This document shows positions 12,592 to 58,207 of a stretch of DNA of 64,000 nucleotides, piece after piece. The first letter of the stretch is position 1, and the number at the start of each line of letters is the position of its first letter. This DNA comes from Deltaproteobacteria bacterium (lineage in GTDB: Bacteria > Desulfobacterota > GWC2-55-46 > UBA9637 > GWC2-42-11). The position numbers and the translations under genes were made by a program. The stretch covers positions 627 to 64,626 of the forward strand of contig JACRPW010000044.1 of assembly GCA_016223005.1 (NCBI GenBank), in the 5' to 3' direction. The notes beneath the pieces were generated by a model, which did not search any database, was not told the origin of the DNA, and saw only the letters and a list, made by a program, of their open reading frames with translations.

Positions 12592-12677
12592 CTCCTTTTT
12601 ACTCGCTTTGCGAGAATTGTAAAATGGAAATTGTAAATTTTAAAATTCCCAATCTTCAATTTGCAATTTTCAATTAT

Positions 12678-14760: not shown

Positions 14761-15735
14761 TTAACCTTTATTCCTTACAGCCAAAAGCATCCTCTCAATA
14801 AGTTCTGTAAAATCTATGCCTGCACACCTTGCTGCCTTTGGCAGTAAACTCAGTTCTGTTAGACCAGGGACTGTGTTAAGTTCAAGAACATAGGGGTCAT
14901 TTTTTTTGTCAAGGCATACATCAACCCTTGCTGCGCCGCAGCACCCAAGGGCATTGTATGCATTAATGGCAGCCTCTTTTACCCTGCATTCAACCCCTTT
15001 CTCCAATGGTGCAGGCGCGATGTAATCTGTCATCCCTTTTGTATATTTTGACCTATAGTCATATAAACCTTTTTTGGGTTTTATCTCTACTACAGGCAAA
15101 GGTTCTCCGCTTAATATCCCTACAGTAACCTCCCTGCCCTGAATAAACCTTTCCAGGACAATCTTGTTATCAAACCTGAAGGCTTTTTTAATTGCCTTTT
15201 GCAAATCCTTTTTATCCTTTACAACAGTAAGCCCTATTGTTGAACCCTGCCTTGCAGGTTTTACTACAAGAGGAAATTTGTAATTTGTAGTTCGTAATTC
15301 GTAATTCTTAATTCCTAATTCGTAATTTCTTATAACCTGCCAATCAGGTGTTGGTATACCATGAAACCTAAAAATCTCCTTTGCTGCTGCCTTGTCAAAT
15401 GCCACTCCACTTGCAAGCACACCTGACCCTGTATATGGTATCCCCATTATCTCAAGGAGCCCCTGTATTGTGCCGTCTTCTCCATATTTGCCGTGTAGGG
15501 CGATAAATGCAAGTTTAATCTTCTTTTTCTCAATTACCTTTGCTGTATCCCTGCCTGCATCCACTGCAACCACTTTATAACCTTTACCCTTAAGCGCCTT
15601 ATATACAGCCATGCCTGAGCAGAGGGATACCTCCCTTTCAGATGACATCCCGCCCATCAAAACCCCTATTTTAAGTTTTTTTAAATTAGTAATTCGTAAT
15701 TCGTAATTCGTAATTTTTTTACTCCTCTCCGACAA
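14761..15735 (-). CDS. ddl: D-alanine--D-alanine ligase. It has a TTG start with a GAGGAGG SD. Heptamer-repeat peptides sit at the N-terminus (ITNYELRITN) and internally (NYELGIKNYELRTTNYKF).
   Basis: ATP-grasp Ddl motifs (KIGVLMGGMSSEREVSL, GSGVLASGVAFDK). The aattcgt-type repeats lie at 15684-15718 and 15275-15330. Confidence 0.92.
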   Translation of the reverse strand: MSERSKKITNYELRITNLKKLKIGVLMGGMSSEREVSLCSGMAVYKALKGKGYKVVAVDAGRDTAKVIEKKKIKLAFIALHGKYGEDGTIQGLLEIMGIPYTGSGVLASGVAFDKAAAKEIFRFHGIPTPDWQVIRNYELGIKNYELRTTNYKFPLVVKPARQGSTIGLTVVKDKKDLQKAIKKAFRFDNKIVLERFIQGREVTVGILSGEPLPVVEIKPKKGLYDYRSKYTKGMTDYIAPAPLEKGVECRVKEAAINAYNALGCCGAARVDVCLDKKNDPYVLELNTVPGLTELSLLPKAARCAGIDFTELIERMLLAVRNKG

Positions 15736-16660
15736 TCTTTATCTCCTCCTCAAGCAATACCCCTTTTTCCTTTAATACCCTATCCTTAATAATATTTATA
15801 AGTAACAGCACATCCTTTGTCTTTGCATCCCCAAGATTTACAATATAATTTGCGTGGACATCTGATACCATTGCATCACCTATCCTTGCACCCTTTAAAC
15901 CAACCTCATCTATGAGTTTGCCTGCGCAAAGCCCTTCAGGGTTTTTAAATATTGAGCCTGCATTCGGCAGGCGAACAGACTGGGTCTTTTCCCTCCTTTT
16001 AATAAATTCGTTCATTTGTTTTTCTATTATAGATACATCCCCTTTTTTAAATTTAAGATGAACCCTTGTAATTATATAATCCGGCTTAAGACTGCACGAC
16101 CTGTATGAAAAATGCAGTTCATCTCTTCTTATAAATATTTTACTGCCTCTTGTATCAGTCACATCAATCCCTGCCACAAGACTGCCTACATCAGCGCCGT
16201 ATGCACCTGCATTCATTGCCACTACCCCACCAATGGTTCCTGGTATTTGGACTGCAAATTCAAGCCCTGAAAGTCCCCTTTTACTACATTCATTCACAAT
16301 CTTTGCAAGTTTAACCCCTGCACCTGCGACCACATAGTCATCAGCCTGCCAGTATAAATCTTTAAATCCATCTGCGAGGTTTATTACAACACCCCTTATG
16401 CCGCCATCTCGGACAACAAGGTTTGTTCCAGCGCCAAGTAAAAAAACAGGGAAATCCTTTACATATGCAAACTTAAGTATCTCCTGAAGGTCATCTTCAT
16501 CCAGAGGAAACGCCATAACATCCGTAGGACCGCCTATTTTCATGGATGTCCACTCTTTCATCAGGACATCAAAGAGGATGCGTCCTTTGAAGTTGCAAGT
16601 TGCAAGCCTGCCCCTGTAAGCAGTAAACAGGGGTTGCAAGTTGCAAGTCTTATCTTTCAC
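15719..16660 (-). CDS. murB: UDP-N-acetylenolpyruvoylglucosamine reductase. The start is either GTG 16660 with a strong SD (which translates a repeat/hairpin element) or ATG 16561.
   Basis: FAD-binding MurB blocks (GGPTD, LLGAGTNLVV) and dcw position. Confidence 0.9.
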   Translation of the reverse strand: MKDKTCNLQPLFTAYRGRLATCNFKGRILFDVLMKEWTSMKIGGPTDVMAFPLDEDDLQEILKFAYVKDFPVFLLGAGTNLVVRDGGIRGVVINLADGFKDLYWQADDYVVAGAGVKLAKIVNECSKRGLSGLEFAVQIPGTIGGVVAMNAGAYGADVGSLVAGIDVTDTRGSKIFIRRDELHFSYRSCSLKPDYIITRVHLKFKKGDVSIIEKQMNEFIKRREKTQSVRLPNAGSIFKNPEGLCAGKLIDEVGLKGARIGDAMVSDVHANYIVNLGDAKTKDVLLLINIIKDRVLKEKGVLLEEEIKIVGEE

Positions 16661-16680
16661 TCTGTTAATTACCTCCTCTC

Positions 16681-18069
16681 TTAAACCTTGAAACTTGCAT
16701 CTTGAATCTTCTTTAAAATCTCATCCCCTATCTGCCATATATCACCTGCACCAAATGTAATAATCATATCATCAGACTTAACCATATCTGCCAGATAATT
16801 AGGCACATCCTTTTTATTAGGTATATACACAACATTTTTATGACCATACCCTTTGATTCCTTCAAACAAACCTTTACCTGTTACACCTTCAACCTTGCCC
16901 TCTCCGGCAGGGTATATATCAGTGAGTATGAGGATGTCTGCATCATTAAATGCAGAGAGAAATTCATTAAATAGGTCTTTTGTTCGTGTGTAGCGATGCG
17001 GCTGAAACACAGCGATAACCCGTTTATTCCAGCCGTCCTTTGCTGCCTTAAGGGTCGCCTTAATCTCCTCTGGATGGTGTCCATAATCATCAATAACTAT
17101 AACATCATCCACTGTCCCTCTTATCTGAAACCTCCGTTCAACGCCGCTAAAATCCTTAAGCCCATTTTTAATATCATCAAAATCCAAGCCGAGTTCTATA
17201 GCAACTGCGGCTGCAGCAAGGCAGTTATATACATTGTGGAGTCCAGGGGTATGAGTTAGAACGCAGCCAATTTTATCTGCCCTGTTCCATATTTCAAAGG
17301 ATGTTTCCATCCCATTAAATGAAATCCCTTTCGCATGATAGTCTGCCTGTGCAAAAAGCCCATAAGTTACATGTCTCCTCTCCACCTTTGGAATCAAAGA
17401 CTGCACATTTGGATGGTCAAGACACAAGACACTTAAACCATAAAACGGCACCTTGTTTATAAATGAGAGATAGGCACCTTTGACTTCGTCCATATCTTTA
17501 TAATGGTCCATGTGCTCCCTGTCTATATTTGTTACGACAGCAATTACAGGAGATAGTTTTACAAATGTCCCATCGCTTTCATCAGCCTCTGCAACAAGGA
17601 ACTCCCCGCTTCCAAGTTTTGCATTGGTTGCCATACTATTAAGCCTGCCGCCTATAACAACAGTGGGATCCATGCCAGCGATACTGAGTATCGTTGCAAT
17701 GATTGAGGTGGTCGTTGTCTTCCCATGCGTCCCTGCAACCAAAATCCCGTATTTCATCCGCATTAGTTCTGCAAGCATCTCTGCCCTTGGAATAACAGGC
17801 AAAAGTCTTTCATGGGCATGCCTTATCTCAGGGTTGTCCTCTTTCACTGCTGAGGAATAGACCACAACATCAGCGCCATCTATATTCTCTTTCTTATGGG
17901 ATATATGCACTGCTGCACCAAGAGATGCCAGCCGCTTTGTTATAGAAGATTCTTTCGCATCTGAGCCTGTAATCTTATATCCAAGGTTTAGAAGCACCTC
18001 TGCAATCCCGCTCATGCCTATTCCGCCTATCCCAACAAAATGTATATGTTTAATCCTCCCTTTATACAT
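16681..18069 (-). CDS. murC: UDP-N-acetylmuramate--L-alanine ligase
   Basis: IHFVGIGGIGMSGIAEVL N-terminus and GTHGKTTTTS P-loop. Confidence 0.95.
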   Translation of the reverse strand: MYKGRIKHIHFVGIGGIGMSGIAEVLLNLGYKITGSDAKESSITKRLASLGAAVHISHKKENIDGADVVVYSSAVKEDNPEIRHAHERLLPVIPRAEMLAELMRMKYGILVAGTHGKTTTTSIIATILSIAGMDPTVVIGGRLNSMATNAKLGSGEFLVAEADESDGTFVKLSPVIAVVTNIDREHMDHYKDMDEVKGAYLSFINKVPFYGLSVLCLDHPNVQSLIPKVERRHVTYGLFAQADYHAKGISFNGMETSFEIWNRADKIGCVLTHTPGLHNVYNCLAAAAVAIELGLDFDDIKNGLKDFSGVERRFQIRGTVDDVIVIDDYGHHPEEIKATLKAAKDGWNKRVIAVFQPHRYTRTKDLFNEFLSAFNDADILILTDIYPAGEGKVEGVTGKGLFEGIKGYGHKNVVYIPNKKDVPNYLADMVKSDDMIITFGAGDIWQIGDEILKKIQDASFKV

Positions 18070-19139
18070 GCATCCCTCTATAAATATCTTCTACAATAAT
18101 ACTAGCCGCATCAGGCATTCCCAATTGGTGTGCCCTTTCCTCAATCTCTTTTATCTTTACTAAATTTTCATAAAGTGAAGTCAATGCATGGGCAAGTTTT
18201 GCCCCATCCAGTTCTTCCTGTTTGAACATGACAGCAGCGCCTCTGTCTGCAAGATACCTTGCATTAACCTCCTGATGGTTGTCCGCAGCAAATGGATACG
18301 GGATAAGGATCGATGCCTTGCCAAGCGCCGTAATCTCTGCAATACTTGTTGCACCGCTCCTACAGATAATCAAGTCTGCCATTTTGTATGCATCTGCCAT
18401 ATCGTCAATAAAATTAAACACATTAGTTTTGAGTTTTGAGTTTATTGTATGTTTCTTTCACCCTCTCATAATCCTCTTCACCTGTCTGGTGGATGATATT
18501 TATTGAGCAATGTTTAAGATATTCCAGCGACTCAAGAAATATTGAGTTTATTGCCTTTGCACCTTGACTGCCTCCAAAAACCAGAATGGTGAATCCTTCG
18601 CCTTTCGCCTTTCGCCTTTCGCCTTTCGCCTTTAGTATTTCCTTCCTCACAGGATTTCCTGAAACTACCACCTTGCCCTTTGGAAAATATTTTTTTGCAT
18701 CAGGAAATGCAACAAATACCCTGTCAACAAACCTCCCAAGGTATCTGTTCGTAATGCCCGGCAGGGTATTTTGTTCAAGGATTATTGTCATAACCTTCAT
18801 AATCTTTGCAGCCGCTACAACTGGAAAGGCACTATACCCGCCTGCACCTACTACAAGGTCAGGCATATATCTTCTAATCAACTTTATAGATTTAAAAATC
18901 CCCATAAGTGCCTTTAAAATGGAAATCGCCCTATTTAATAATCCCTTTCCTTTCACACCTCCAACATCTAATGTCTCAAGATGGAAACCATATTTGTAGA
19001 GTATCTTTGCCTCCAGACCCTTCTTGCTCCCTATAAATGTAATCTCATTTCCAGAATCCCTTTCCTTAAAGATTTCTGCCAGTGCAATCGCTGGAAATAA
19101 ATGTCCTCCGGTTCCGCCTCCAGTTAGTATAATTTTCAA
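18062..19139 (-). CDS. murG: MurG glycosyltransferase. It is encoded as two ORFs in different frames (18423..19139 for the N-domain, 18062..18421 for the C-domain), joined at a 3-unit aaactca heptamer tract. Deleting one 7-nt unit restores a single frame.
   Basis: The N-ORF has GGGTGGHLFPAIALA. The C-ORF has FIDDMADAYKMADLIICRSGA, the conserved MurG C-terminal motif. The frames abut at 18424-18444. Confidence 0.85.
18424..18444. repeat. Heptamer tandem repeat (minus-strand aaactca x3) at the murG frame junction
   Basis: The + strand reads tagtttt gagtttt gagttta. Confidence 0.9.
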
Positions 19140-19141
19140 TA

Positions 19142-20245
19142 TTAAACACTCTCCTGACTTTTTTTGTAGATATTTAAGAGTATGCCCACACCTATCATAT
19201 TGATGACAAGTGATGAGCCTCCATAACTTATAAACGGCAGGACAAGCCCTTTTGTTGGCAATAGCCCTGTTACAACAGCCATATTCACAACTGCCTGAAG
19301 CGAGACAAGAAGTGTCACACCTATTGCCAGATAGGTGCCGTACAGGTCAGATGCAATTAAAGAAATCTTTATGCCTGATATAAGAAAAAGTATGTATAAA
19401 GAGATTACAATGCCAACACCAATAAGTCCAAGTTCCTCCCCAATAACAGAAAATATAAAGTCTGTATGTGCCTCAGGGAGATAAAATAGTTTCTGCTTAC
19501 CCTCACCCAGACCAACCCCCCATATACCACCAACACCAAATGCAAGAAAAGACTGGATAATCTGCCAACCATCGCCATGAAAGTCCTTCCATGGATCAAT
19601 AAAGACCATTATTCTGTCCACTATATAACCCTTCTTTAAGATAATGTAATATATAATAAGAACAAATATTGGCAAAAGGGCTGCTATATATCTTATCCGC
19701 ACCCCTGCGATAATCATCATGGCAAGCACAATAGCGCCAAGGGACAACATACCCCCAAAATCTTTCTCAAAATATATCAGAGAGAGTATAATGCCCGGTA
19801 TGATGATGTGAGGCAAGAAACCTATTTTAAAGGTTTTTATCTTTTCATTTTTTGTGGAGAGGGAATAGGCAAGGTATATAATAATTGATAATTTTGCAAG
19901 TTCAGAGGGTTGAAATGTCCAGTTGCCTATTTTAAGCCATCTTCTTGCACCACCAGCCATATAACCGATTCCCGGAATAAGAACCAATATGAGCAGAACT
20001 GTAGAGATTATGAGAAGCGGATACACAAGACCTTTATAAGTGTGATAGGAAATCCGTGTTGTTATGTAAAATATAGTAAATGCAATAACCAATGAAACCA
20101 GATGTTTGCTTACAAACAGATACTCGTTTCCATATCTCTTAATTGCCATGATATAGGTAGTTGAATATATCATTACAAAACCGGCTGCAAGAAGCAGAAG
20201 TGTTGCAATTATCAATAACTTGTCTATTTCCCGTGCCTTAATCAC
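19142..20245 (-). CDS. ftsW: Lipid II flippase/peptidoglycan polymerase FtsW (SEDS family)
   Basis: Multi-TM SEDS protein located between murD and murG. Confidence 0.9.
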   Translation of the reverse strand: MIKAREIDKLLIIATLLLLAAGFVMIYSTTYIMAIKRYGNEYLFVSKHLVSLVIAFTIFYITTRISYHTYKGLVYPLLIISTVLLILVLIPGIGYMAGGARRWLKIGNWTFQPSELAKLSIIIYLAYSLSTKNEKIKTFKIGFLPHIIIPGIILSLIYFEKDFGGMLSLGAIVLAMMIIAGVRIRYIAALLPIFVLIIYYIILKKGYIVDRIMVFIDPWKDFHGDGWQIIQSFLAFGVGGIWGVGLGEGKQKLFYLPEAHTDFIFSVIGEELGLIGVGIVISLYILFLISGIKISLIASDLYGTYLAIGVTLLVSLQAVVNMAVVTGLLPTKGLVLPFISYGGSSLVINMIGVGILLNIYKKSQESV

Positions 20246-21663
20246 AGCGCCTCTACCAATTTTTTAAAGACATCCCCTCTCTCCTCATAACTCTTAAACA
20301 TATCAAAACTTGAACATGCAGGGGAAAGGAGGACTATGTCTCCGCTTTTTGCTGTATTGTGTGCCTTTTTAACAGCATCTTCCATTGACAAGGCGAATAC
20401 AGTCTCTGTGCAGGCACCCAGCGCCTTTTTCATCTTCTGTCTTGCCTCTCCTATAAGTATCAAGAGTTTGACCTTTTCCTTTATCAAATCTTTAAGCACA
20501 CTGTAGTCGCCGCCTTTGTCCTTACCACCTGCTATTAGGACAATTGGCGCATTAAACCCCTCCAGACACTTCTGCAAGGCGCCGATATTTGTGCCTTTTG
20601 AATCATCGTAATAGGAAACACCGTTGATCTCTCTTGCAAACTCTACCCTGTGCGGCAGGGCATCAAAGGCATTTATGATTTTGATTACTTCATCATCCTT
20701 TAAACCGCACATTTTTGCTGCCGCTATTACAGCCATTATGTTTTCTATGTTATGGATACCCTTAAGTTTGAAACCGACAGTTGGATATATTTCTTTTGCG
20801 CCATCAAGAGAATAAACAATCCTGTTATCCTTATAATAAACCCCCTCTTCCAGAACATGGGTGCTGCTGAAAGGGATGATACGGATTTGAGATTTGAGAT
20901 TTGAGATTTGAGATTTTATAACCGGGTCATCTATATTCACAACCGCAATATCCCCTTGCCCCTGATTTTTGAATATATTAAATTTTGCATCCGCATATTC
21001 CTTAAAATTTGCGTATCTGTCCAGATGGTCCTCGGTAATGTTCAGAAGTATAGAAATATACGGCTTAAACCGTCTTATGCCCTCCAGTTGAAAACTGCTT
21101 ACCTCTGCTACCACATAATCAGACCTTTCTTTTCCCATGGCATAGTCAATCAGAGGAGTACCAATATTGCCGCCCACAAAGACATCTCTGCCTGCATCAC
21201 TCAAAACCCTGCCCAGCAGTGCTGTGGTTGTAGTTTTGCCATTTGTTCCTGTAACAGCAATAATAGGGGTGTCTATAAAATTATATGCCAGTTCAATCTC
21301 GCTTATAACCTCAATACCTTTCTTTCTTGCCCCCTGTATAGGTTCTATACTTGACGGCACACCCGGGCTTAAGATTATAAGGTCTGCCTCTGTAAAAATA
21401 TCTGCCGGGTGTTTACCTGCTGCAACCTTTACCCCTTCCATGTCATCTGAATAAGGCAGGTCTTCTATTGGTTTTAAGTCTGTTACAGTAACAACTGCCC
21501 CCTTTTCCTTCAGGAACCTTATGGTAGAAAGTCCTGTAGATGCAAGACCGACAACAAGGACATGCTTGCCTTTCAGGTCAAACTGATTAATGCGAGAAAC
21601 GATGTAACGCGGGAAACGATGTAAGGTTTCCTGCCTTTCCTGCCTTTCCCGCCTTTCTCGCAT
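20242..21663 (-). CDS. murD: UDP-N-acetylmuramoylalanine--D-glutamate ligase. The ATG 21663 start with a GAGGTG SD gives a repeat-encoded N-terminal extension (MRERRERQERQETLHRF). There is an internal KSQISNLKSQI heptamer insertion.
   Basis: Mur ligase blocks (GTNGKTTTTAL). The gatttga x4 repeat lies at 20884-20911. Confidence 0.92.
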   Translation of the reverse strand: MRERRERQERQETLHRFPRYIVSRINQFDLKGKHVLVVGLASTGLSTIRFLKEKGAVVTVTDLKPIEDLPYSDDMEGVKVAAGKHPADIFTEADLIILSPGVPSSIEPIQGARKKGIEVISEIELAYNFIDTPIIAVTGTNGKTTTTALLGRVLSDAGRDVFVGGNIGTPLIDYAMGKERSDYVVAEVSSFQLEGIRRFKPYISILLNITEDHLDRYANFKEYADAKFNIFKNQGQGDIAVVNIDDPVIKSQISNLKSQIRIIPFSSTHVLEEGVYYKDNRIVYSLDGAKEIYPTVGFKLKGIHNIENIMAVIAAAKMCGLKDDEVIKIINAFDALPHRVEFAREINGVSYYDDSKGTNIGALQKCLEGFNAPIVLIAGGKDKGGDYSVLKDLIKEKVKLLILIGEARQKMKKALGACTETVFALSMEDAVKKAHNTAKSGDIVLLSPACSSFDMFKSYEERGDVFKKLVEAL

Positions 21664-21667
21664 TACT

Positions 21668-22765
21668 TCACCTCAGTTTAAGTGTAGATATTGCTATCAA
21701 AGAAAGTATTATTGAAATTATCCAGAATCTGACAATAATCTTGGGTTCAGCCCATCCCTTGAGTTCAAAATGGTGATGGATTGGTGCCATAAGGAGAACC
21801 CTCTTCCCGCGGATCTTATAAGAGCCAACCTGAAATATTACAGAGAGCGCCTCTACAACAAAAATCCCTCCCACCAATACCAGAAGGATTTCATGCTTTG
21901 TAATAACAGCAAGTGTTCCAATAGCGCTGCCAAGTGCAAGAGAGCCTACATCACCCATAAATACCTGAGCAGGATATGTATTGAACCAGAGGAAACCAAG
22001 ACTCGCACCAACCATTGCACCTGCAAATATTGTAAGTTCACCGCTTTTTGCCACATAAAGTATCTGCAGATAGTTGGCGATTTTTATGTTTCCTGTCAGG
22101 TATGCAAGGAGCATATATGTTGCAGAAACTATCATTACAGGTCCTATAGCAAGTCCATCAAGCCCGTCTGTAAGATTCACTGCATTGGACGCACCTACTA
22201 CAACAAGCATGACAAACGGTATGTAAAAGACCCCCATGTCTATCATAACCTCTTTAAAAAAAGGCACTGTTACACGGGTATCAAACCCATTAAGGTACAG
22301 AAATAGGGCAACTGCAAACGCTATTAGAAACTGTCCTAAAAGTTTGTATGGGGGCAGAAGCCCGCGGCTGTCCCTTTTCACCAATTTGATATAATCATCA
22401 ATAAAACCGACTGCACCAAAGCCGAGGGTAATGAGGACAAGGAGCCAGACATAAAGATTTGTGAGGTTTGCCCACAGGAGTGTGGGTATAACAACTGCAA
22501 ATATTATGAGTGTCCCCCCCATAGTGGGAGTGCCTTCTTTACTTATATGATTCGGGGGGCCGTCCTTTCTTATGACCTGACCGACTTGCATCTCAGAAAG
22601 TTTCCTTATAATGTAGGGACCCAGAATAAAACTCAGAAGCAGGGCTGTAATAACAGCATAGATTGCCCTGAATGTAATATACTGAAATACATTAAAGACC
22701 GTATGATATGTGTGTAACGGATATAGTAAATGGTAAAGCATTAGTCGCTTCGCTCCATTGTCCAT
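21668..22765 (-). CDS. mraY: Phospho-N-acetylmuramoyl-pentapeptide transferase
   Basis: Polytopic membrane protein with MraY motifs ([10 protein letters not shown]). Confidence 0.95.
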
Positions 22766-22821
22766 CGGAAATTGTAGATTTTAAATTTTATAAACATTTT
22801 GCAATTCCCAATTCCCAATCT

Positions 22822-24039
22822 TCACTTTACAATGTCGTATTGTAACCTTTCAATTATCTCTTCCATGCCGACTGCCCTTGAACCTTTCACAAGCAGGATG
22901 TCTCCATTTTTCAAAATCTTTTCTAAGGCATTAACAACCTCTGATTTATTGTTAAGCGTTTGAACACATTTTTTATCCATTCCTGCCTTAATCGCGCCGT
23001 CTGCAATATCTTTTTTGAATTCACCCACAACAAATAAAAGGTCTAATCCTAATCCGCCTGCAACTTTGCCTATATATCTGTGCCTTTCTTTTGATGCATC
23101 CCCAAGTTCCAGCATATCACCCAGCACAGCGATTTTTCTGCCTTTCATCTCCGAAAGGCTTCTTAAGGATGCCTCAACAGATGCAGGATTTGCATTGTAT
23201 GTGTCATCTATGACTGTAATATCATTTTCAAGTTTAATCGGCCCCATCCTTCCATACAGGGGTTTATAGTTTTTAAGCCCATCAATAATATTTTGCTTCT
23301 TTGCGCCAATGGCAAGGCTTGCCGCAATTGCAGCAGCGGCATTTGAAAGATTATGAACGCCGTATCCATTTATATTTACCTCTGTATTGTCTCCATTCAC
23401 ATTAAATACTGCGGACATGCCGCCGTTATTCTTTGAATATTCTTTAAGAAAAACATCGGCATTAGATTTAATGCTGAATGTAATCTTTTTTTGCTTTATA
23501 GATTCTGCTATTTTTACAATCCACGGGTCATCCATATTTATTACAACAACACCATCCTCTCTGAGCCCCGAAAATATTTCACCTTTAGCAGATGCAACAC
23601 CATCAATATCTCCGAGTGTCTTCAGATGTGCTGAACCAATATTAGTCAGAAGGGCAATATCAGGCTTGCAGATACTTGTAAGTTTTGTCATCTCACCCTT
23701 TTCGCTTATACCAAGTTCTACAACTGCAATATCGTGTATGTTGTTCATCTTAAGCAGTGTAAGGGGCAGACCTATCAGGTTGTTCAGATTACCCTCTGTC
23801 TTCAGGACACAATGGGATTGCCTGAGTATTGAGGCTATCATCTCCTTTGTTGTTGTCTTGCCGCAACTGCCGCTGACTGCAATCAAGGGCACAGGGTGTC
23901 TCTCCCGCCAGTATCGTGCAAGATTGCCGAGAGCGGAAATTCCGTTAATGGCATCTATGATTTCTTTTGCTGTCAGTTCAAACATACAAACATTAGTGTC
24001 AGTGATTAGTGTCAGTGTCAGTAAAATCTTGCCTCTCAC
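22822..24039 (-). CDS. murF: UDP-MurNAc-tripeptide--D-alanyl-D-alanine ligase. The likely start is MFELTAKE near 23988.
   Basis: Mur ligase with a GSCGKTTTKEM P-loop. Confidence 0.9.
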   Translation of the reverse strand: MRGKILLTLTLITDTNVCMFELTAKEIIDAINGISALGNLARYWRERHPVPLIAVSGSCGKTTTKEMIASILRQSHCVLKTEGNLNNLIGLPLTLLKMNNIHDIAVVELGISEKGEMTKLTSICKPDIALLTNIGSAHLKTLGDIDGVASAKGEIFSGLREDGVVVINMDDPWIVKIAESIKQKKITFSIKSNADVFLKEYSKNNGGMSAVFNVNGDNTEVNINGYGVHNLSNAAAAIAASLAIGAKKQNIIDGLKNYKPLYGRMGPIKLENDITVIDDTYNANPASVEASLRSLSEMKGRKIAVLGDMLELGDASKERHRYIGKVAGGLGLDLLFVVGEFKKDIADGAIKAGMDKKCVQTLNNKSEVVNALEKILKNGDILLVKGSRAVGMEEIIERLQYDIVK

Positions 24040-24060
24040 TGTCCACTGACACTGACACTA
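23994..24060. repeat. Long hairpin whose arms are themselves tandem tgtcag(t) repeats (agtgtcagtgtcagt ... actgacactgacact) in the murF-murE spacer. The right arm overlaps the murE stop.
   Basis: The two arms form a 15-nt inverted repeat with no mismatches and a ~22-nt loop. Confidence 0.85.
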
Positions 24061-25548
24061 TTCATTATTCATTGCCTTTCTAACTTCTTCCACATCATCA
24101 AATGGTATCTTTTTATCACCGATAATTTGATATTTTTCATGCCCTTTTCCGGCAATAACTATAAAATCCCCTGCCTCTGCAATAGTTACTGCCTTTTCAA
24201 TTGCCTCTTTCCTATCAGGAATTATCATGTAGTCTTGACCCTTGACCCCTGCCTCTATCTCCTTTATAATTGCAAGCGGGTCTTCATCTCTCGGATTGTC
24301 AGATGTAATTATTGTAATATTGGAGAACCTTGCTGCAATTTCCCCCATAATGGGTCTCTTGCCTCTATCCCTGTTACCACCGCAGCCAAACACTGTGATT
24401 ACCCTTGCCCCTGCCACATCCCTTATTGTTGTAAGAAGCCTTTCAAGTGCATCACCTGTATGGGCATAGTCAATAACTGCCTGAAAGCCTTTCTTTGACG
24501 AAACCCTTTCAATCCTGCCTTCCACAGTTTTAAGATTTGAGATGCCTTTTTCAATGACATCTATTTTCAAACCCAATCCGATCCCGGCACCAACCGCTGC
24601 CATTATATTTTGCAAGTTATGCTTGCCTAAAAGTTTTGATGAGATATGAATACTGCCAATAGGTGTTGATAAAGAAGCCTCAATTCCGTTATCTGTAAAA
24701 TCCATTTTTTTAGGGAATATATTGCCCATTGCCTCTGCGTTAAGACTATATTCAATAGTTTTGACTTTTGACTTCGGGGCACCCACGATAGTGGGTCGTT
24801 TGACTTTTAATAATCTTCCCCATTCATCATCTATGTTAATTACTGCAAAACAATCTTCTGACTGCGGCAGAAACTCCTCAAACAGTCTTGCCTTGCTCTC
24901 AAAATAATCCTCCATAGTCTTGTGATAATCAAGGTGGTCCTGTGTAAGGTTTGTAAATACCCCTCCCTTAAAGATACAGCCGTCCACCCTCTTCTGGGAA
25001 AGGGCATGTGATGAGACCTCCATAACACAGTTGGTAACACCATTATCCGCCATATCTTTTAAGAGCCTCTGCAAATCAGGAGACTCAGGTGTTGTATGGG
25101 ATGCATCCAGTATCTTCCCCCTGTATCTGTAATTTATTGTGCCTATCACACCCGATTCCAGACCCGCCTGTTTAAGTATAGATTCAATCAGAAATGTCGT
25201 TGTTGTCTTGCCATTTGTTCCGGTAACACCTACAAGATTGAGTTTTCTTGAAGGCTCTCCATAAAACCTGCATGCAAGTTTTGCCATCGCATCTCTTGAA
25301 TCAGGCACAATAATCTCTGGGACTTTAACAGCACTGTCTATCCTTTCTGATACAATTGCTGCTGCACCATTTTTCACTGCATCAGGAATAAAGTTATAGC
25401 CATCTGTATTCTCCCCTTTTAGCGCTGCGAACAGGGAACCCTTTTTTACATCTCTGGAGTTATATGCAATACCCTTTATCTCTATATCCTCATTTAAGTT
25501 TTGAATTTCAAATGGTGATAAAACTTCTAATAAATCTTTTAATTTCAC
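24058..25548 (-). CDS. murE: UDP-MurNAc-L-Ala-D-Glu--2,6-diaminopimelate ligase
   Basis: Mur ligase GVTGTNGKTTTT, with a DNPR motif in the C-terminal domain. Confidence 0.93.
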   Translation of the reverse strand: MKLKDLLEVLSPFEIQNLNEDIEIKGIAYNSRDVKKGSLFAALKGENTDGYNFIPDAVKNGAAAIVSERIDSAVKVPEIIVPDSRDAMAKLACRFYGEPSRKLNLVGVTGTNGKTTTTFLIESILKQAGLESGVIGTINYRYRGKILDASHTTPESPDLQRLLKDMADNGVTNCVMEVSSHALSQKRVDGCIFKGGVFTNLTQDHLDYHKTMEDYFESKARLFEEFLPQSEDCFAVINIDDEWGRLLKVKRPTIVGAPKSKVKTIEYSLNAEAMGNIFPKKMDFTDNGIEASLSTPIGSIHISSKLLGKHNLQNIMAAVGAGIGLGLKIDVIEKGISNLKTVEGRIERVSSKKGFQAVIDYAHTGDALERLLTTIRDVAGARVITVFGCGGNRDRGKRPIMGEIAARFSNITIITSDNPRDEDPLAIIKEIEAGVKGQDYMIIPDRKEAIEKAVTIAEAGDFIVIAGKGHEKYQIIGDKKIPFDDVEEVRKAMNNE

Positions 25549-33419: not shown

Positions 33420-34409
33420 ATGGGTAACTTACTTACAATAAAAAACTTAAAAAAGCACTTCCATGTGAGCAGGGGGATATTTGATAGACACGGCAGCACA
33501 GTGTATGCTGTTGACGGTGTGGGTCTATCTGTAAAAAAGGGCGAGACCTTTGGTCTTGTCGGAGAATCAGGGTGCGGCAAATCAACACTTGCAAGGGTTG
33601 TGATGCGGCTTATAGAACCAACAGGTGGGAGTATCATCTTCGATGGTCGTGATATATCATCTCTATCGCAAAGAGAGATGATTCCGATTAGAAGAAAGGT
33701 GCAGATGATATTTCAAGACCCTTATGCATCTTTAAACCCGAGGATGACAGTTGGGGATATTATTGGAGAGGCACTTATAATACACAAACTTGCAGAAAGT
33801 AATGTTCAGAAGAATAATATTGTTGCAAAACTTATGGATGTGGTTGGTCTTCCAAAGGATTCTATAAACCGCTACCCGCATGAATTCAGCGGAGGTCAGA
33901 GACAGAGAGTCGGCATAGCAAGGGCGCTTGCAGTAAAACCTGATTTAATCATTGCAGATGAACCTATATCTGCCCTTGATGTATCTATTCAGGCACAGAT
34001 TCTAAACTTGTTACAGGATTTGCAGAAGGAATTTAATCTCACATACCTTTTTATAGCCCATGATTTAAGGGTTGTGGAGTATATAAGCGACAGGATTGCG
34101 GTTATGTATCTTGGAAAGATCGTTGAACTCGGAAATGCCAGCGATGTTTATAATCACCCTGTCCATCCATATACTGAGTCGCTTTTGTCTTCTATACCAA
34201 TACTGGGGACAGATTTGAAATCTGTCCCCACTGTCCACAAAAAAAAGAAGAGGATAATACTTAAAGGTGACATACCAAGCCCTATGAACCCGCCTTCAGG
34301 CTGTGCATTTCACACAAGGTGTATATATGCACAGGAAAGGTGCAAGATAGAAGCACCGCTGCTGACAGAAAGGGATGGAAGGGTTGCGTCATGCCACTTC
34401 CCGTTATAA
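33420..34409 (+). CDS. ABC transporter ATP-binding protein, oligopeptide/dipeptide (OppF/DppF-like) family with a Cys-containing C-terminal extension. No cognate permease is adjacent. The listed ORF starts at 33363.
   Basis: Walker A GESGCGKST, ABC signature LSGGQRQRV, Walker B IIADEP, and a C-terminal CAFHTRC...C tail. Confidence 0.85.
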   Translation: MGNLLTIKNLKKHFHVSRGIFDRHGSTVYAVDGVGLSVKKGETFGLVGESGCGKSTLARVVMRLIEPTGGSIIFDGRDISSLSQREMIPIRRKVQMIFQDPYASLNPRMTVGDIIGEALIIHKLAESNVQKNNIVAKLMDVVGLPKDSINRYPHEFSGGQRQRVGIARALAVKPDLIIADEPISALDVSIQAQILNLLQDLQKEFNLTYLFIAHDLRVVEYISDRIAVMYLGKIVELGNASDVYNHPVHPYTESLLSSIPILGTDLKSVPTVHKKKKRIILKGDIPSPMNPPSGCAFHTRCIYAQERCKIEAPLLTERDGRVASCHFPL

Positions 34410-35408: not shown

Positions 35409-35918
35409 ATAGATAACGAGAATATTAATTGGTATGCTGTTCATGTCAGGTCAAGACATGAGTTTAAGGTATTTGAGCATCTGACGAGGTCAGGGATAGA
35501 TACATTTCTTCCTGTAGTGGAAAGGCTTTCCAGATGGAAGGACAGGAAGAAGTTAATAGATTTCCCGCTTTTCCCGGGTTATATGTTTGTGCATATCCAA
35601 AAGGTTTATGATACCATGCTCTCTGTTCTCAAAACACCGGGTGTTGTAAGGATGCTTGGGCTTTCTGCATCTGAGCCATATCCTGTGCCTGAAGAACAAA
35701 TCATATCTTTAAAAAAACTTATTGCATGCAAGCAAGACATTGACCCTTACCCGTATCTCAAGGAAGGGAAGATGATTAGAATAAAAAGCGGGCCTTTTAA
35801 AGGCATTGAAGGAATACTTGCAAAAAAGCATGACAAACACATGCTTGTAATTTCTATTGATGTCTTACAGCGGGGTGTTGCGGTAAGAATAGCAGCATCT
35901 GATGTGGAGATGATTTAA
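35409..35918 (+). CDS. NusG-family transcription antiterminator paralog (UpxY/LoaP-like: NGN domain plus KOW). The NGN domain is encoded upstream of the listed ATG (35517). The reading frame opens at 35385 with no canonical start codon; ATA 35409 follows an AAGGAG SD.
   Basis: Upstream in-frame translation reads NINWYAVHVRSRHEFKVFEHLTRSGIDTFLPVVE (NGN motif). The C-terminus has a KOW-like GKMIRIKSGPFKGIEGIL. Confidence 0.6.
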   Translation: MDNENINWYAVHVRSRHEFKVFEHLTRSGIDTFLPVVERLSRWKDRKKLIDFPLFPGYMFVHIQKVYDTMLSVLKTPGVVRMLGLSASEPYPVPEEQIISLKKLIACKQDIDPYPYLKEGKMIRIKSGPFKGIEGILAKKHDKHMLVISIDVLQRGVAVRIAASDVEMI

Positions 35919-35952
35919 AGGCGGGAAAGGCTGGAAAAAAGGGGGACTCAAA

Positions 35953-40134: not shown

Positions 40135-40260
40135 CAGTATGCAACGGTATTTTGTATTCTAACAATCTTTAAATCAGTGTAAACCTAGTTAGAAAATCTG
40201 CAACTGTTTAGATTGTTAGAAATAACGGCTAAACATCATTGAAATTTGTAAGGGGATTTT

Positions 40261-45051: not shown

Positions 45052-45240
45052 ATGAAGAGGATTTATAGTCTGATTGTTGTATTATTGTTAGTATCTCCTA
45101 TGTTTCTTGCTGCTTCATGCGGTAAGAAGGCAGAGGAAACAAAGCCAGCAGAAACAGCAGCTCCAGCAGCACCTGCAGCACCAGCCCCAGAGGCAGCACC
45201 AGCAGCACCAGCCCCAGAGGCAGCACCAGCAAAGAAGTAA
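45052..45240 (+). CDS. Small Ala/Pro-rich lipoprotein (lipobox LAASC) built from 21-nt tandem repeats
   Basis: Signal peptide plus Cys lipobox. The unit PAAPAPEAA is repeated; the DNA repeats lie at 45175-45232. Confidence 0.6.
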   Translation: MKRIYSLIVVLLLVSPMFLAASCGKKAEETKPAETAAPAAPAAPAPEAAPAAPAPEAAPAKK

Positions 45241-49403: not shown

Positions 49404-49479
49404 TGGAGCGGGCGACGGGATTCGAACCCGCGACCCCAACCTTGGCAAGGTTGTGCTCTACCAGCTGAGCTACACCCGC
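49404..49479 (-). tRNA. tRNA-Gly (anticodon GCC), CCA encoded
   Basis: The reverse complement folds as a cloverleaf: GCGGGUG acceptor, anticodon loop UUGCCAA, T-loop GGUUCGAAUCC. Confidence 0.9.
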
Positions 49480-56164: not shown

Positions 56165-56255
56165 GGAGAGATGTCCGAGCGGCCGAAGGAGCACGACTGG
56201 AAATCGTGTGTGCGCTAATACCGTACCGAGGGTTCAAATCCCTCTCTCTCCGCCA
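56165..56255 (+). tRNA. tRNA-Ser (anticodon GGA) with a long variable arm, CCA encoded
   Basis: GGAGAGA/TCTCTCC acceptor, anticodon loop CUGGAAA, T-arm GAGGGTTCAAATCCCTC. Confidence 0.9.
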
Positions 56256-56348: not shown

Positions 56349-56456
56349 TTGATAGCCGGGTCTTGCGCAGCGGTTAGGTTGCGAACCCCGCCAGGTCCGG
56401 AAGGAAGCAACGGCAGTAACTCTATTCCGGGTGCCGCAAGTCTGCCTGGCTATCAA
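56349..56456 (+). ncRNA. ffs: Signal recognition particle RNA (4.5S/ffs, small bacterial type)
   Basis: Conserved domain IV motif CCAGGUCCGGAAGGAAGCA. The terminal helix is gatagcc...ggctatc. It has the conserved position immediately upstream of dnaX. Confidence 0.85.
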
Positions 56457-58095: not shown

Positions 58096-58207
58096 AGATG
58101 TCTGATTACACAGATTACAAAGGCAGATTACGCAGATTAGAAAAGATTAGTTTTAAATCGGTGTAATCGTTTTTAAAAATCTGTGTAATCATTTATAGGG
58201 AGGATAG

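Follow-up and report, generated by a model that had tools for sequence, protein, structure and literature searches.

The subject of this analysis is a compound repeat at the junction of the cell-wall genes mraY and murD, located in a stretch of 64,000 nucleotides from a Deltaproteobacteria bacterium (contig JACRPW010000044.1, positions 627 to 64,626), referred to below as the window. The genes follow the order of the dcw (division and cell wall) cluster, and every gene around the repeat is encoded on the minus strand. Pfam matches confirmed the identities of MraY, MurD, MurB, Ddl, MurF and MurG. The junction comprises the following features, with gene coordinates including the stop codon:

21668-22765, minus strand: mraY (Pfam Glycos_transf_4, E = 3.8e-35)
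21668-21670, minus strand: TGA stop codon of mraY, the end of open reading frame (ORF) 21668-22765
21669-21674, minus strand: Shine-Dalgarno sequence GAGGTG of murD, read from the sequence, overlapping the mraY stop, 5 nt before the ATG
21661-21663, minus strand: ATG start codon of murD, the sole canonical in-frame start ahead of the MurD core
20242-21663, minus strand: murD, UDP-N-acetylmuramoyl-L-alanine--D-glutamate ligase, 473 aa (Pfam Mur_ligase_M, MurD-like_N and Mur_ligase_C)
21568-21663, minus strand: murD codons 1-32, an N-terminal tail outside the conserved domain, as delimited by the Pfam start at residue 33, the structure prediction and relatives without a match

The mraY TGA (21670-21668) and the murD ATG (21663-21661) are separated by a gap of 4 nt. 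The two ORFs therefore do not overlap, contrary to the initial annotation of this DNA, which had let murD overlap the mraY stop. Since the TGA is embedded in GAGGTGA, it is the Shine-Dalgarno sequence, not the murD ORF, that overlaps the stop. Other genes of the window use Shine-Dalgarno sequences of the AGGAGG type.

Anatomy and translation of the repeat element

A repeat of two 17-mers and three to four 9-mers with matching inverted ends had initially been described at 21592-21661, and its sequence is as stated there. Tandem Repeats Finder (TRF) reported a 17-mer in 2.2 copies at 21588-21624 (90% matches, score 60) and a 9-mer in 3.4 copies at 21627-21657 (95% matches, score 55); beyond the TRF limits, a repeat search extended the 9-mer family to 21662. 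The whole element measures 78 nt (21588-21665, minus, i.e. coding, strand) and is 4 nt longer on each side than first noted. Its layout on the coding strand is TAATGCGAGAAA-(GGCRGGAAA)x3-…-(CTTACATCGTTTCYCGC)x2-ATTA, and the plus strand reads gcgagaaacgatgtaac / gcgggaaacgatgtaag / g / tttcctgcc tttcctgcc tttcccgcc tttctcgc at 21592-21661. The coding-strand RNA, from 21665 down to 21588, is 5'-UA AUG CGAGAAAG GCGGGAAAG GCAGGAAAG GCAGGAAAC CUUACAUCG UUUCCCGCG UUACAUCG UUUCUCGCA UUA-3'. The element consists of these parts:

21654-21665, minus strand: 5' arm of the basal stem, UAAUGCGAGAAA, which contains the AUG (inverted repeat I1, 12 nt, 100% complementary; paired in the minimum free energy (MFE) and centroid folds)
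21627-21662, minus strand: 5' array of four 9-mers, GCGAGAAAG, GCGGGAAAG, GCAGGAAAG and GCAGGAAAC (TRF period 9, 3.4 copies; family D1), read as R-E-R/R-E-R/Q-E-R/Q-E-T
21588-21624, minus strand: 3' array of two 17-mers, CTTACATCGTTTCCCGC / GTTACATCGTTTCTCGC (TRF period 17, 2.2 copies; family D2; inverted repeats I1-I3), with the 5'-unit complements TTTCCCGC and TTTCTCGC, each after TTACATCG
21588-21599, minus strand: 3' arm of the basal stem, UUUCUCGCAUUA (inverted repeat I1 and folds)
21609-21616, minus strand: 3' arm of the inner 8-bp stem, UUUCCCGC (inverted repeat I2 and MFE fold), pairing with GCGGGAAA at 21645-21652

The inverted ends turned out to be longer than claimed. A perfect 12-bp terminal inverted repeat, TAATGCGAGAAA / TTTCTCGCATTA, occupies 21588-21599 and 21654-21665, 54 nt apart, and includes the murD ATG; GCGGGAAA / TTTCCCGC form a second, inner pair of 8 bp. 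The 5' arm is built of four 9-mers of the type GCRGGAAAG, and the 3' arm of four units of 8-9 nt, arranged as two 17-mers with complements TTTCYCGC, so that each 17-mer starts with TTACATCG and continues with the reverse complement of a 5' unit. The two 5' units concerned (GCGAGAAA and GCGGGAAA) have a single difference, which recurs between their complements in the 3' arm (TTTCTCGC and TTTCCCGC), and the stem difference, A:U in the outer and G:C in the inner stem, is matched on both arms.

When arrays were counted at a score of at least 36, 30 dinucleotide shuffles yielded 0.33 period-9 and 0.13 period-17 arrays per window. Counted with a minimum of 12 bp and loops up to 100 nt, perfect inverted repeats occur six times in the window against 0.45 expected from dinucleotide shuffles. 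The compound repeat is real and goes beyond chance. It is unlikely to be an assembly artefact: the frame is kept, four independent assemblies of another lineage agree exactly in their analogous element, and a typical short read presumably exceeds 78 nt.

The element lies inside the murD frame, as had been proposed, because the only usable murD start (ATG 21663, with GAGGTG 5 nt upstream) is located 5' of it. No in-frame ATG, GTG or TTG was found between murD codon 1 and the Rossmann motif (VLVVGLASTG, residue 35 on). Only the near-cognate codons ATC21, ATT25 and CTG30 precede this motif, none of them with a purine-rich Shine-Dalgarno sequence, and the remaining two reading frames over the element are closed. 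Conceptual translation of the element starts with MRERRERQERQETLHRF..., and an identical 473-aa product with the same start is on record at NCBI (P0001). Pfam MurD-like_N begins at residue 33, which is profile position 1. In AlphaFold2 models the core reached a mean predicted local distance difference test score (pLDDT) of 82, with residues 1-26 below 50. Aligned to the tail, MurD proteins of relatives showed gaps or dissimilar tails of their own and no match. Four relatives with a non-coding hairpin (L002, L010, L011, L018) have their own start codon directly ahead of the core, preceded in L010 by a clear Shine-Dalgarno sequence, whereas the window has no such start. Judged from the sequence, the element is almost certainly translated, giving an otherwise normal MurD with a charged tail of 32 residues, and this appears to be the sole reading that would give a functional MurD.

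Predicted RNA fold at the murD start

The sense RNA of the element was predicted to fold at -37.6 kcal/mol (z = -3.6), and none of 200 shuffles was as stable. The 12-bp basal stem begins 2 nt upstream of the AUG, which lies inside the stem in both the MFE and the centroid fold. The proposal that the inverted ends could form a stem is thus in line with the prediction, in which the AUG would be buried. Opening positions -15 to +12 of murD was calculated to cost 17.8 kcal/mol, compared to a median of 7.75 (standard deviation 4.3) for the 58 starts of the window. This is the second highest cost of all 58; the sole higher one belongs to a doubtful GTG of murF inside another hairpin, and murD has the most occluded credible start in the window. 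As in structure-mediated coupling, the stop codon of mraY lies 4 nt before the ATG, and the start is sequestered in a predicted stem.

Among the 16 informative hairpins of the inverted-array kind, 12 have more G.U pairs on the sense strand, a weak signal that hints at RNA-level constraint on these hairpins as a class.

An intrinsic terminator was considered and dismissed: the terminator scan returned none at 21588-21665, and the stem is followed by AUUAAUCAGUUUGACC and not by a U-run. No convincing promoter was found around the element. Rfam gave no family over the element, either in an E-value search around it or in a gathering-threshold search of the window and ten loci; matches were limited to signal recognition particle (SRP) RNA and tRNAs elsewhere. 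At the gathering threshold these are a bacterial small SRP RNA and two tRNA genes (56354-56454, 49407-49479 and 56165-56252).

Repeats at the junction in relatives and across the window

The best other MurD homologue, from relative L001, is 69% identical. The identical MurD protein belongs to a cluster with a single member, for which no encoding contig is on record, and a junction-anchored 23-mer had no match in metagenome contigs. Members of the clade sharing the C-terminal end of MraY typically have an ATGA overlap of the mraY stop with the murD start. Between the stop of mraY and the MurD core lies a hypervariable stretch of 53 to 252 nt in this clade, and of 25 to 312 nt over all loci compared. 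The spacer in relatives consists mostly of unrelated 7-9-nt arrays, coding in some and non-coding in others:

L026: (GAGAAACG)3 with the inverted partner (TTCCCCGA)3; fold z -4.5
L003: (GGTCAAGA)4 with an inverse array; fold z -3.2
L010: (GGTTCAR)4 with an inverse array, non-coding; fold z -4.7
L002: 185-nt hairpin of an A/C-rich and a G/U-rich array as inverted partners, non-coding; fold z -4.5
L008: (AGTCAGA)4, no inverted partner, no hairpin
L215: (AGTCAAG)4, no inverted partner, not folded
L216: (CCAGCGA)4, no inverted partner, not folded
L006: (GGCAATR)4, no inverted partner, no hairpin

Inverted-array hairpins are found at about half of the clade's mraY>murD junctions, and even close relatives carry wholly different arrays (L026 versus L215, L002 versus L216). 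The initial annotation had called for a comparison with relatives; short arrays do recur at the junction, but their units are unrelated and the closest relative has no hairpin there. It had also treated the repeat as a discrete element. The relatives show it instead as a fast-turnover product of a genome-wide tendency to form repeats, absent from the closest relative. The elements of the window and of L026 are alike in having purine-rich GRGAAASG units, then TTYCCCG units, then ATT(A/C)ATCAGTT. Homology between them, at first plausible, could not be established, because the L215 array is wholly different and the window groups in the MurD tree with the hairpin-less L001, not with L026.

A two-codon mini-ORF, GUG AAG UAA (21663-21671, minus strand), bridges mraY and murD. 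Its GUG overlaps the mraY UGA (G-UGA) at the position of the relatives' murD ATG, and its UAA overlaps the present murD AUG (UA-AUG). This suggests that the murD start codon has shifted to a new frame in the lineage of the window.

In L005 (3905-4018), L008 (3968-4078) and L009 (1680-1775), MurD tails like KSEIRNQKSE are encoded by (AATCAGA/AGTCAGA)n. This array is the reverse complement of MTYCTGA, the class-3 heptamer of Geobacter metallireducens. The L005 tail also holds a ccccctttgaaaaaggggg hairpin.

The murD array is accompanied by many others in the window. Period-7 arrays number 18 against 0.07 expected from dinucleotide shuffles, and period-9 arrays 7 against 0.33. Two thirds of the arrays with periods of 7-9 (18 of 27) are intergenic or no more than 90 nt away from an ORF end, a category that makes up 26.6% of the window (p = 1.5e-5). 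The neighbouring genes of the dcw cluster are the following:

24058-25548 (stop included), minus strand: murE
22822-24039 (stop included), minus strand: murF
19142-20245 (stop included), minus strand: ftsW
18062-19139 (stop included), minus strand: murG, split
further downstream of murG, minus strand: murC, murB, ddl, ftsQ, ftsA and ftsZ

Hairpins made of an array and its inverted copy were predicted at three more junctions, murE>murF, murC>murB and ftsA>ftsZ, the last with -26 kcal/mol. At murE>murF (23960-24090), inverted GTGTCAGTG arrays form a hairpin of -40 kcal/mol that covers both the stop codon of murE and the earliest potential start of murF. The start of murF is ambiguous, either GTG 24039 within the hairpin or ATG 23985, and PF01225 (Mur ligase N-terminal domain) was not detected in the 405-aa MurF. 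The murC>murB junction (16570-16730) folds at -43 kcal/mol. Intergenic pairs of inverted heptamer arrays at 12615-12675 (ftsA>ftsZ) and 22769-22819 (murF>mraY) place hairpins just upstream of ftsZ and mraY.

As had been noted, the element is not the only repeat within an essential gene; others are in murB, ddl, murG and the interior of murD itself. In murB and ddl (5' end 15684-15715), arrays are located between a strong Shine-Dalgarno sequence with its start and the conserved core, as in murD, and encode the N-terminal tails VKDKTCNLQPLFTAYRGRLATCNF… and LSERSKKITNYELRITN…. Within murD, a perfect heptamer array, TCAAATC in 4.7 copies (20884-20916), encodes KSQISNLKSQI in a variable loop. The orthologous loop in L003, L005 and P0031, which are only ~60% identical, consists of degenerate heptamers that encode nearly the same peptide, and L026 has a different, AAATTCG-like heptamer there. 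A heptamer array, ACTCAAA in 2.7 copies (18421-18443, minus strand), marks the exact point where murG breaks into two pieces, 18423-19139 and 18062-18421, with positions 1-53 of Glyco_tran_28_C in the first piece and 59-163 in the second. Loss of one 7-nt unit would restore a single frame, and the split may represent a variant arisen by slippage, an error of assembly or a genuine pseudogene.

Probable origin of the element and its possible role

The element is a pair of short tandem arrays in inverted orientation, one of many 7-9-nt arrays in a repeat-prone genome, where such arrays accumulate at tolerant sites: gene junctions, the first ~30 codons and variable loops. We give a probability of about 0.5 to the reading that it is a locally generated quasi-palindrome, tolerated by its host, whose start-occluding hairpin couples murD to mraY. 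Replication slippage would have generated the tandem arrays. The mutational origin is suggested by units that vary with locus and lineage, the genome-wide excess, the enrichment where arrays are tolerated, and the frameshifting slip in murG. Intramolecular template switching at a nascent hairpin could then have copied one arm onto the other, which would account for the matched A:T versus G:C difference between outer and inner stem. Template switching is a documented source of hairpins (PMC8794818, PMC7202029); it homogenises or extends the arms of quasi-palindromes in one step and leaves apparently compensatory changes, also in coding sequence (PMC8794818, PMC7202029, PMC8604942). Those studies deal with single events in rRNA, Escherichia coli reporters or yeast genes, whereas the murD arms are tandem arrays without an ancestral intermediate.

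Once formed, the element would persist in a permissive N-terminal spacer of MurD. In the mRNA, a hairpin of about -34 to -38 kcal/mol would hide the AUG and allow a free 30S subunit only poor initiation. Ribosomes that end translation at the mraY UGA, 4 nt away on the 5' side, would cover and open most of the basal stem and then pass on to the AUG of murD, so that translation of murD would be tightly coupled to that of mraY. Classical examples of coupling through an occluded start are the MS2 coat-replicase pair and rpmI-rplT of E. coli, where the dependence was reportedly shown by experiment and the structure is conserved. The murD junction resembles them in that an upstream stop lies within a few nucleotides of a downstream start buried in a stem. 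Unlike them, the coupling of murD is a prediction, and its structure is not conserved in relatives.

Several points weigh against this coupling hairpin. Coupling, the simplest mechanistic reading of the locus, is derived from a thermodynamic prediction, and the origin by slippage and template switching is read from the sequence pattern. Sense and antisense folds of the element are nearly equal (-34.2 versus -32.5 kcal/mol), and therefore provide no strand-specific signal of RNA-level selection for it. Stems of this kind can be opened by ribosomes during elongation or termination, and the effect may therefore be quantitatively small. The junction has no hairpin in the closest relative L001, nor in L004, L006, L007 and L008. 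In relatives with an in-frame hairpin (L026, L003) the start codon is left uncovered, and start occlusion is thus not a conserved feature. Polymorphic intermediates were not found: the L026 element is identical in four samples, and the databases hold no close relative of the window. Since neither the hairpin nor its position is conserved, a selected function is unproven, and the absence from the closest relative together with the fast turnover weakens the case for a regulatory role.

The main rival is that the element is a neutral by-product, i.e. debris of slippage and template switching with no selected role as RNA, DNA or protein, which persists because the N-terminus of MurD tolerates extensions and ribosomes unwind the hairpin, any coupling being incidental and small. 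We consider this possible, if somewhat doubtful. It would explain the rapid turnover between L026 and L215 and between L002 and L216, the lack of a hairpin in L001, a unit sequence that is different at every locus, and the slip that has split murG; an enrichment at gene boundaries is also what purifying selection against insertions in gene interiors would produce. In addition, viral contigs contain permuted 9-mer arrays no less often than (GGCRGGAAA)3 (3 and 6 matches versus 2). Less easily explained are the recurrence of hairpins at about half of the clade's mraY>murD junctions and at several other dcw junctions of the window, the excess of G.U pairs on the sense strand in 12 of 16 informative hairpins, and the fact that the murD start is the most occluded credible one. 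The matched A:T/G:C difference of inner and outer stems also speaks for a role, though template switching alone could yield it. At the other end stands the idea that the lineage maintains inverted 7-9-nt-array hairpins at operon junctions as tunable couplers or mRNA-processing signals. We regard it as unlikely. If it held, the copy number of an array would set the stem length and hence the expression ratio of adjacent cell-wall genes, nothing would keep a maintained hairpin system from spreading into the first codons of essential genes, and the different arrays recurring at mraY-murD would reflect selection for a hairpin there and not a mutational hotspot.

The genome-wide background of arrays has its counterpart in long simple sequence repeats with units of 5-11 nt, such as the cyanobacterial short tandemly repeated repetitive (STRR) sequences and TAACTGA of Beggiatoaceae, described by MacGregor (2015, PMC4679880) in a paper that also sums up the survey by Mrazek. 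For heptamers of this kind close to start codons, bioRxiv 10.1101/2022.06.06.494920 is a further source. As with the arrays of the window, a genome-wide excess, dominance of heptamers, positions near start codons or gene ends and a proposed origin by slippage are given for them (PMC4679880), and they are occasionally located in ORFs near the termini, including MurG of Beggiatoa (PMC4679880). The 9-mer (3.4 copies) and the 17-mer (2.2 copies) of murD likewise exceed the shuffle expectation. STRR and TAACTGA are, however, direct repeats of mostly one genome-specific unit, usually non-coding, with stops in all frames in the case of TAACTGA, whereas the murD element is an inverted compound with periods of 9 and 17 and another sequence, translated downstream of a start. 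The neighbouring arrays of the window are heptamers, but of sequences other than STRR or TAACTGA.

The closest published description is that of the paired sites of Geobacter metallireducens, classes 1-3, in which a unit of 7-9 nt is repeated 3-5 times head to tail and recurs as another array on the opposite strand, the two being separated by an interval of variable length, a few tens of nucleotides (Aklujkar et al. 2009, PMC2700814). These pairs occur between operon genes, e.g. proBA, and related heptanucleotide families are found within and between genes (PMC2700814). The murD element is similar, with four 9-mers and complements of two of them in the 3' arm, and both host genomes are deltaproteobacterial. 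It might accordingly serve as a paired binding site on DNA for a nucleoid-associated protein or global regulator, acting on transcription or on the chromosome architecture of the dcw region. The architecture fits sites that were read as binding integration host factor (IHF)/HU or a global regulator (PMC2700814), a second short array of the same 9-mer exists at 35917-35937, and the L026 unit, cyclically TCTCCGTT, is near the class-2 consensus TCTCCGTS[Y]. However, the Geobacter sites are multicopy families sharing the consensus sequences GTTGCTYN, TCTCCGTS[Y] and MTYCTGA, and the murD units GGCRGGAAA / TTTCYCGC match none of these; likeness to a class consensus appears only in relatives, L026 being near class 2 and the L008 and L009 heptamers resembling class 3. 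Of the multicopy trait, the 64-kb window shows one further short direct 9-mer array and no second paired copy. A function as protein-binding sites has itself only been proposed for Geobacter, while the murD arms are close enough for a single RNA hairpin and stand in a translated frame, inside an operon, with no convincing promoter around them. One sequence-specific protein can be ruled out, since the units vary from locus to locus in the window and between close relatives. Taken together, a DNA-level role is quite improbable.

REP (repetitive extragenic palindromic) hairpins stabilise upstream mRNA in enterobacterial operons. An element of the REP/BIME (bacterial interspersed mosaic element) type could shield the mraY segment from 3'-5' exonucleases or mark an RNase site, and would then set different steady-state levels for proximal and distal dcw genes. 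The murD element has in common with REP/BIME a stable stem-loop without a U-tract at an intra-operon junction and possible effects on mRNA stability or translation; strong hairpins of this kind occur at several junctions of the same operon, and L002, L010, L011 and L018 carry theirs in a non-coding mraY-murD spacer. In the window, on the contrary, the hairpin is part of the translated murD frame and would be opened by ribosomes again and again, and it is not conserved in the closest relative. The shared multicopy sequence and extragenic location that define REPs are lacking. We therefore consider mRNA processing rather improbable, and rejected membership in REP/BIME itself: REPs form a conserved, multicopy, extragenic family associated with RAYTs (REP-associated tyrosine transposases), and the murD element is lineage-specific and lies in an ORF, with no further full copy in the window. 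Finally, the Arg/Glu-rich tail MRERRERQERQE... might be a selected module of MurD, e.g. a charged helix for interaction or localisation. It is in frame and stop-free, and AlphaFold2 placed a helix at residues 2-14, but the pLDDT of residues 1-26 is below 50, the tails of homologues (7-47 residues) are unrelated in sequence and set by whichever repeat is present, and the same kind of element is non-coding in some relatives. Such a protein-level function is extremely unlikely.

Two further element classes were examined and set aside. A miniature inverted-repeat transposable element (MITE) would share the 12-bp terminal inverted repeat, but no flanking direct duplication (…GAT/TAATG…CATTA/CTTC) and no further copies were found in the window, and the junction-anchored metagenome search was empty. 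A contingency locus does not fit either: murD is essential, changes by a 9-mer are frame-neutral but a change by a 17-mer would be lethal, and the element of the L026 lineage is identical in four samples.

We regard the murD element as a further case of an already known sequence type, namely a tandem array of short units made into a quasi-palindromic hairpin, and the mraY-murD junction as a hotspot for such arrays in this lineage. A repeat-prone genome can thus add novel structured sequence where translation of an essential, highly conserved enzyme begins, without disrupting the enzyme, and the junction of two cell-wall genes becomes a fast-evolving spacer whose content varies by lineage. If the hairpin gates the initiation of murD, it would provide a simple, evolvable means of fixing the ratio of MraY to MurD. 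As regards annotation, core enzymes in such metagenome-assembled genomes can have long N-terminal "extensions" that are repeat-derived and yet real, and heptamer slips can yield apparent pseudogenes such as murG.

The 9-mer unit was also followed in metagenome contigs. More than 120 contigs contain three or more (GGCRGGAAA) units, about one fifth of them paired with an inverted array up- or downstream, and the arrays often start right after a stop codon (44 versus 11, duplicates included in the count). Because controls with permuted units were as frequent in viral contigs (3 and 6 matches versus 2 for the real unit), the unit was not treated as special, and a dispersed (GGCRGGAAA)n family was rejected. 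In six of the metagenome contigs (L084, L102, L118, L119, L185 and L187; ~65% GC), (GGCRGGAAA)n starts at or right after a stop codon and is followed by inverted (YTTCCYGCC)n, resulting in long intergenic hairpins with a murD-like architecture in unrelated organisms.

Neither a second paired copy of the 9-mer arrays nor a further copy of the 17-mer was found within the window. The second short array of the element's 9-mer, AAAGGCGGGAAAGGCTGGAAA (35917-35937, plus strand), is in sense orientation, has no inverted partner, and is located between a TAA stop and the Shine-Dalgarno sequence and ATG of the next gene (35953). Four more perfect inverted repeats of at least 12 bp with short loops are present at 1473-1546, 34204-34230, 40157-40221 and 58103-58191. 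The longest array of the window (45145-45231) comprises about 9.7 copies of a CCAGCAGCA-like 9-mer, also with a 27-nt period in 2.4 copies, in a region where no ORF of 90 aa or more is called.

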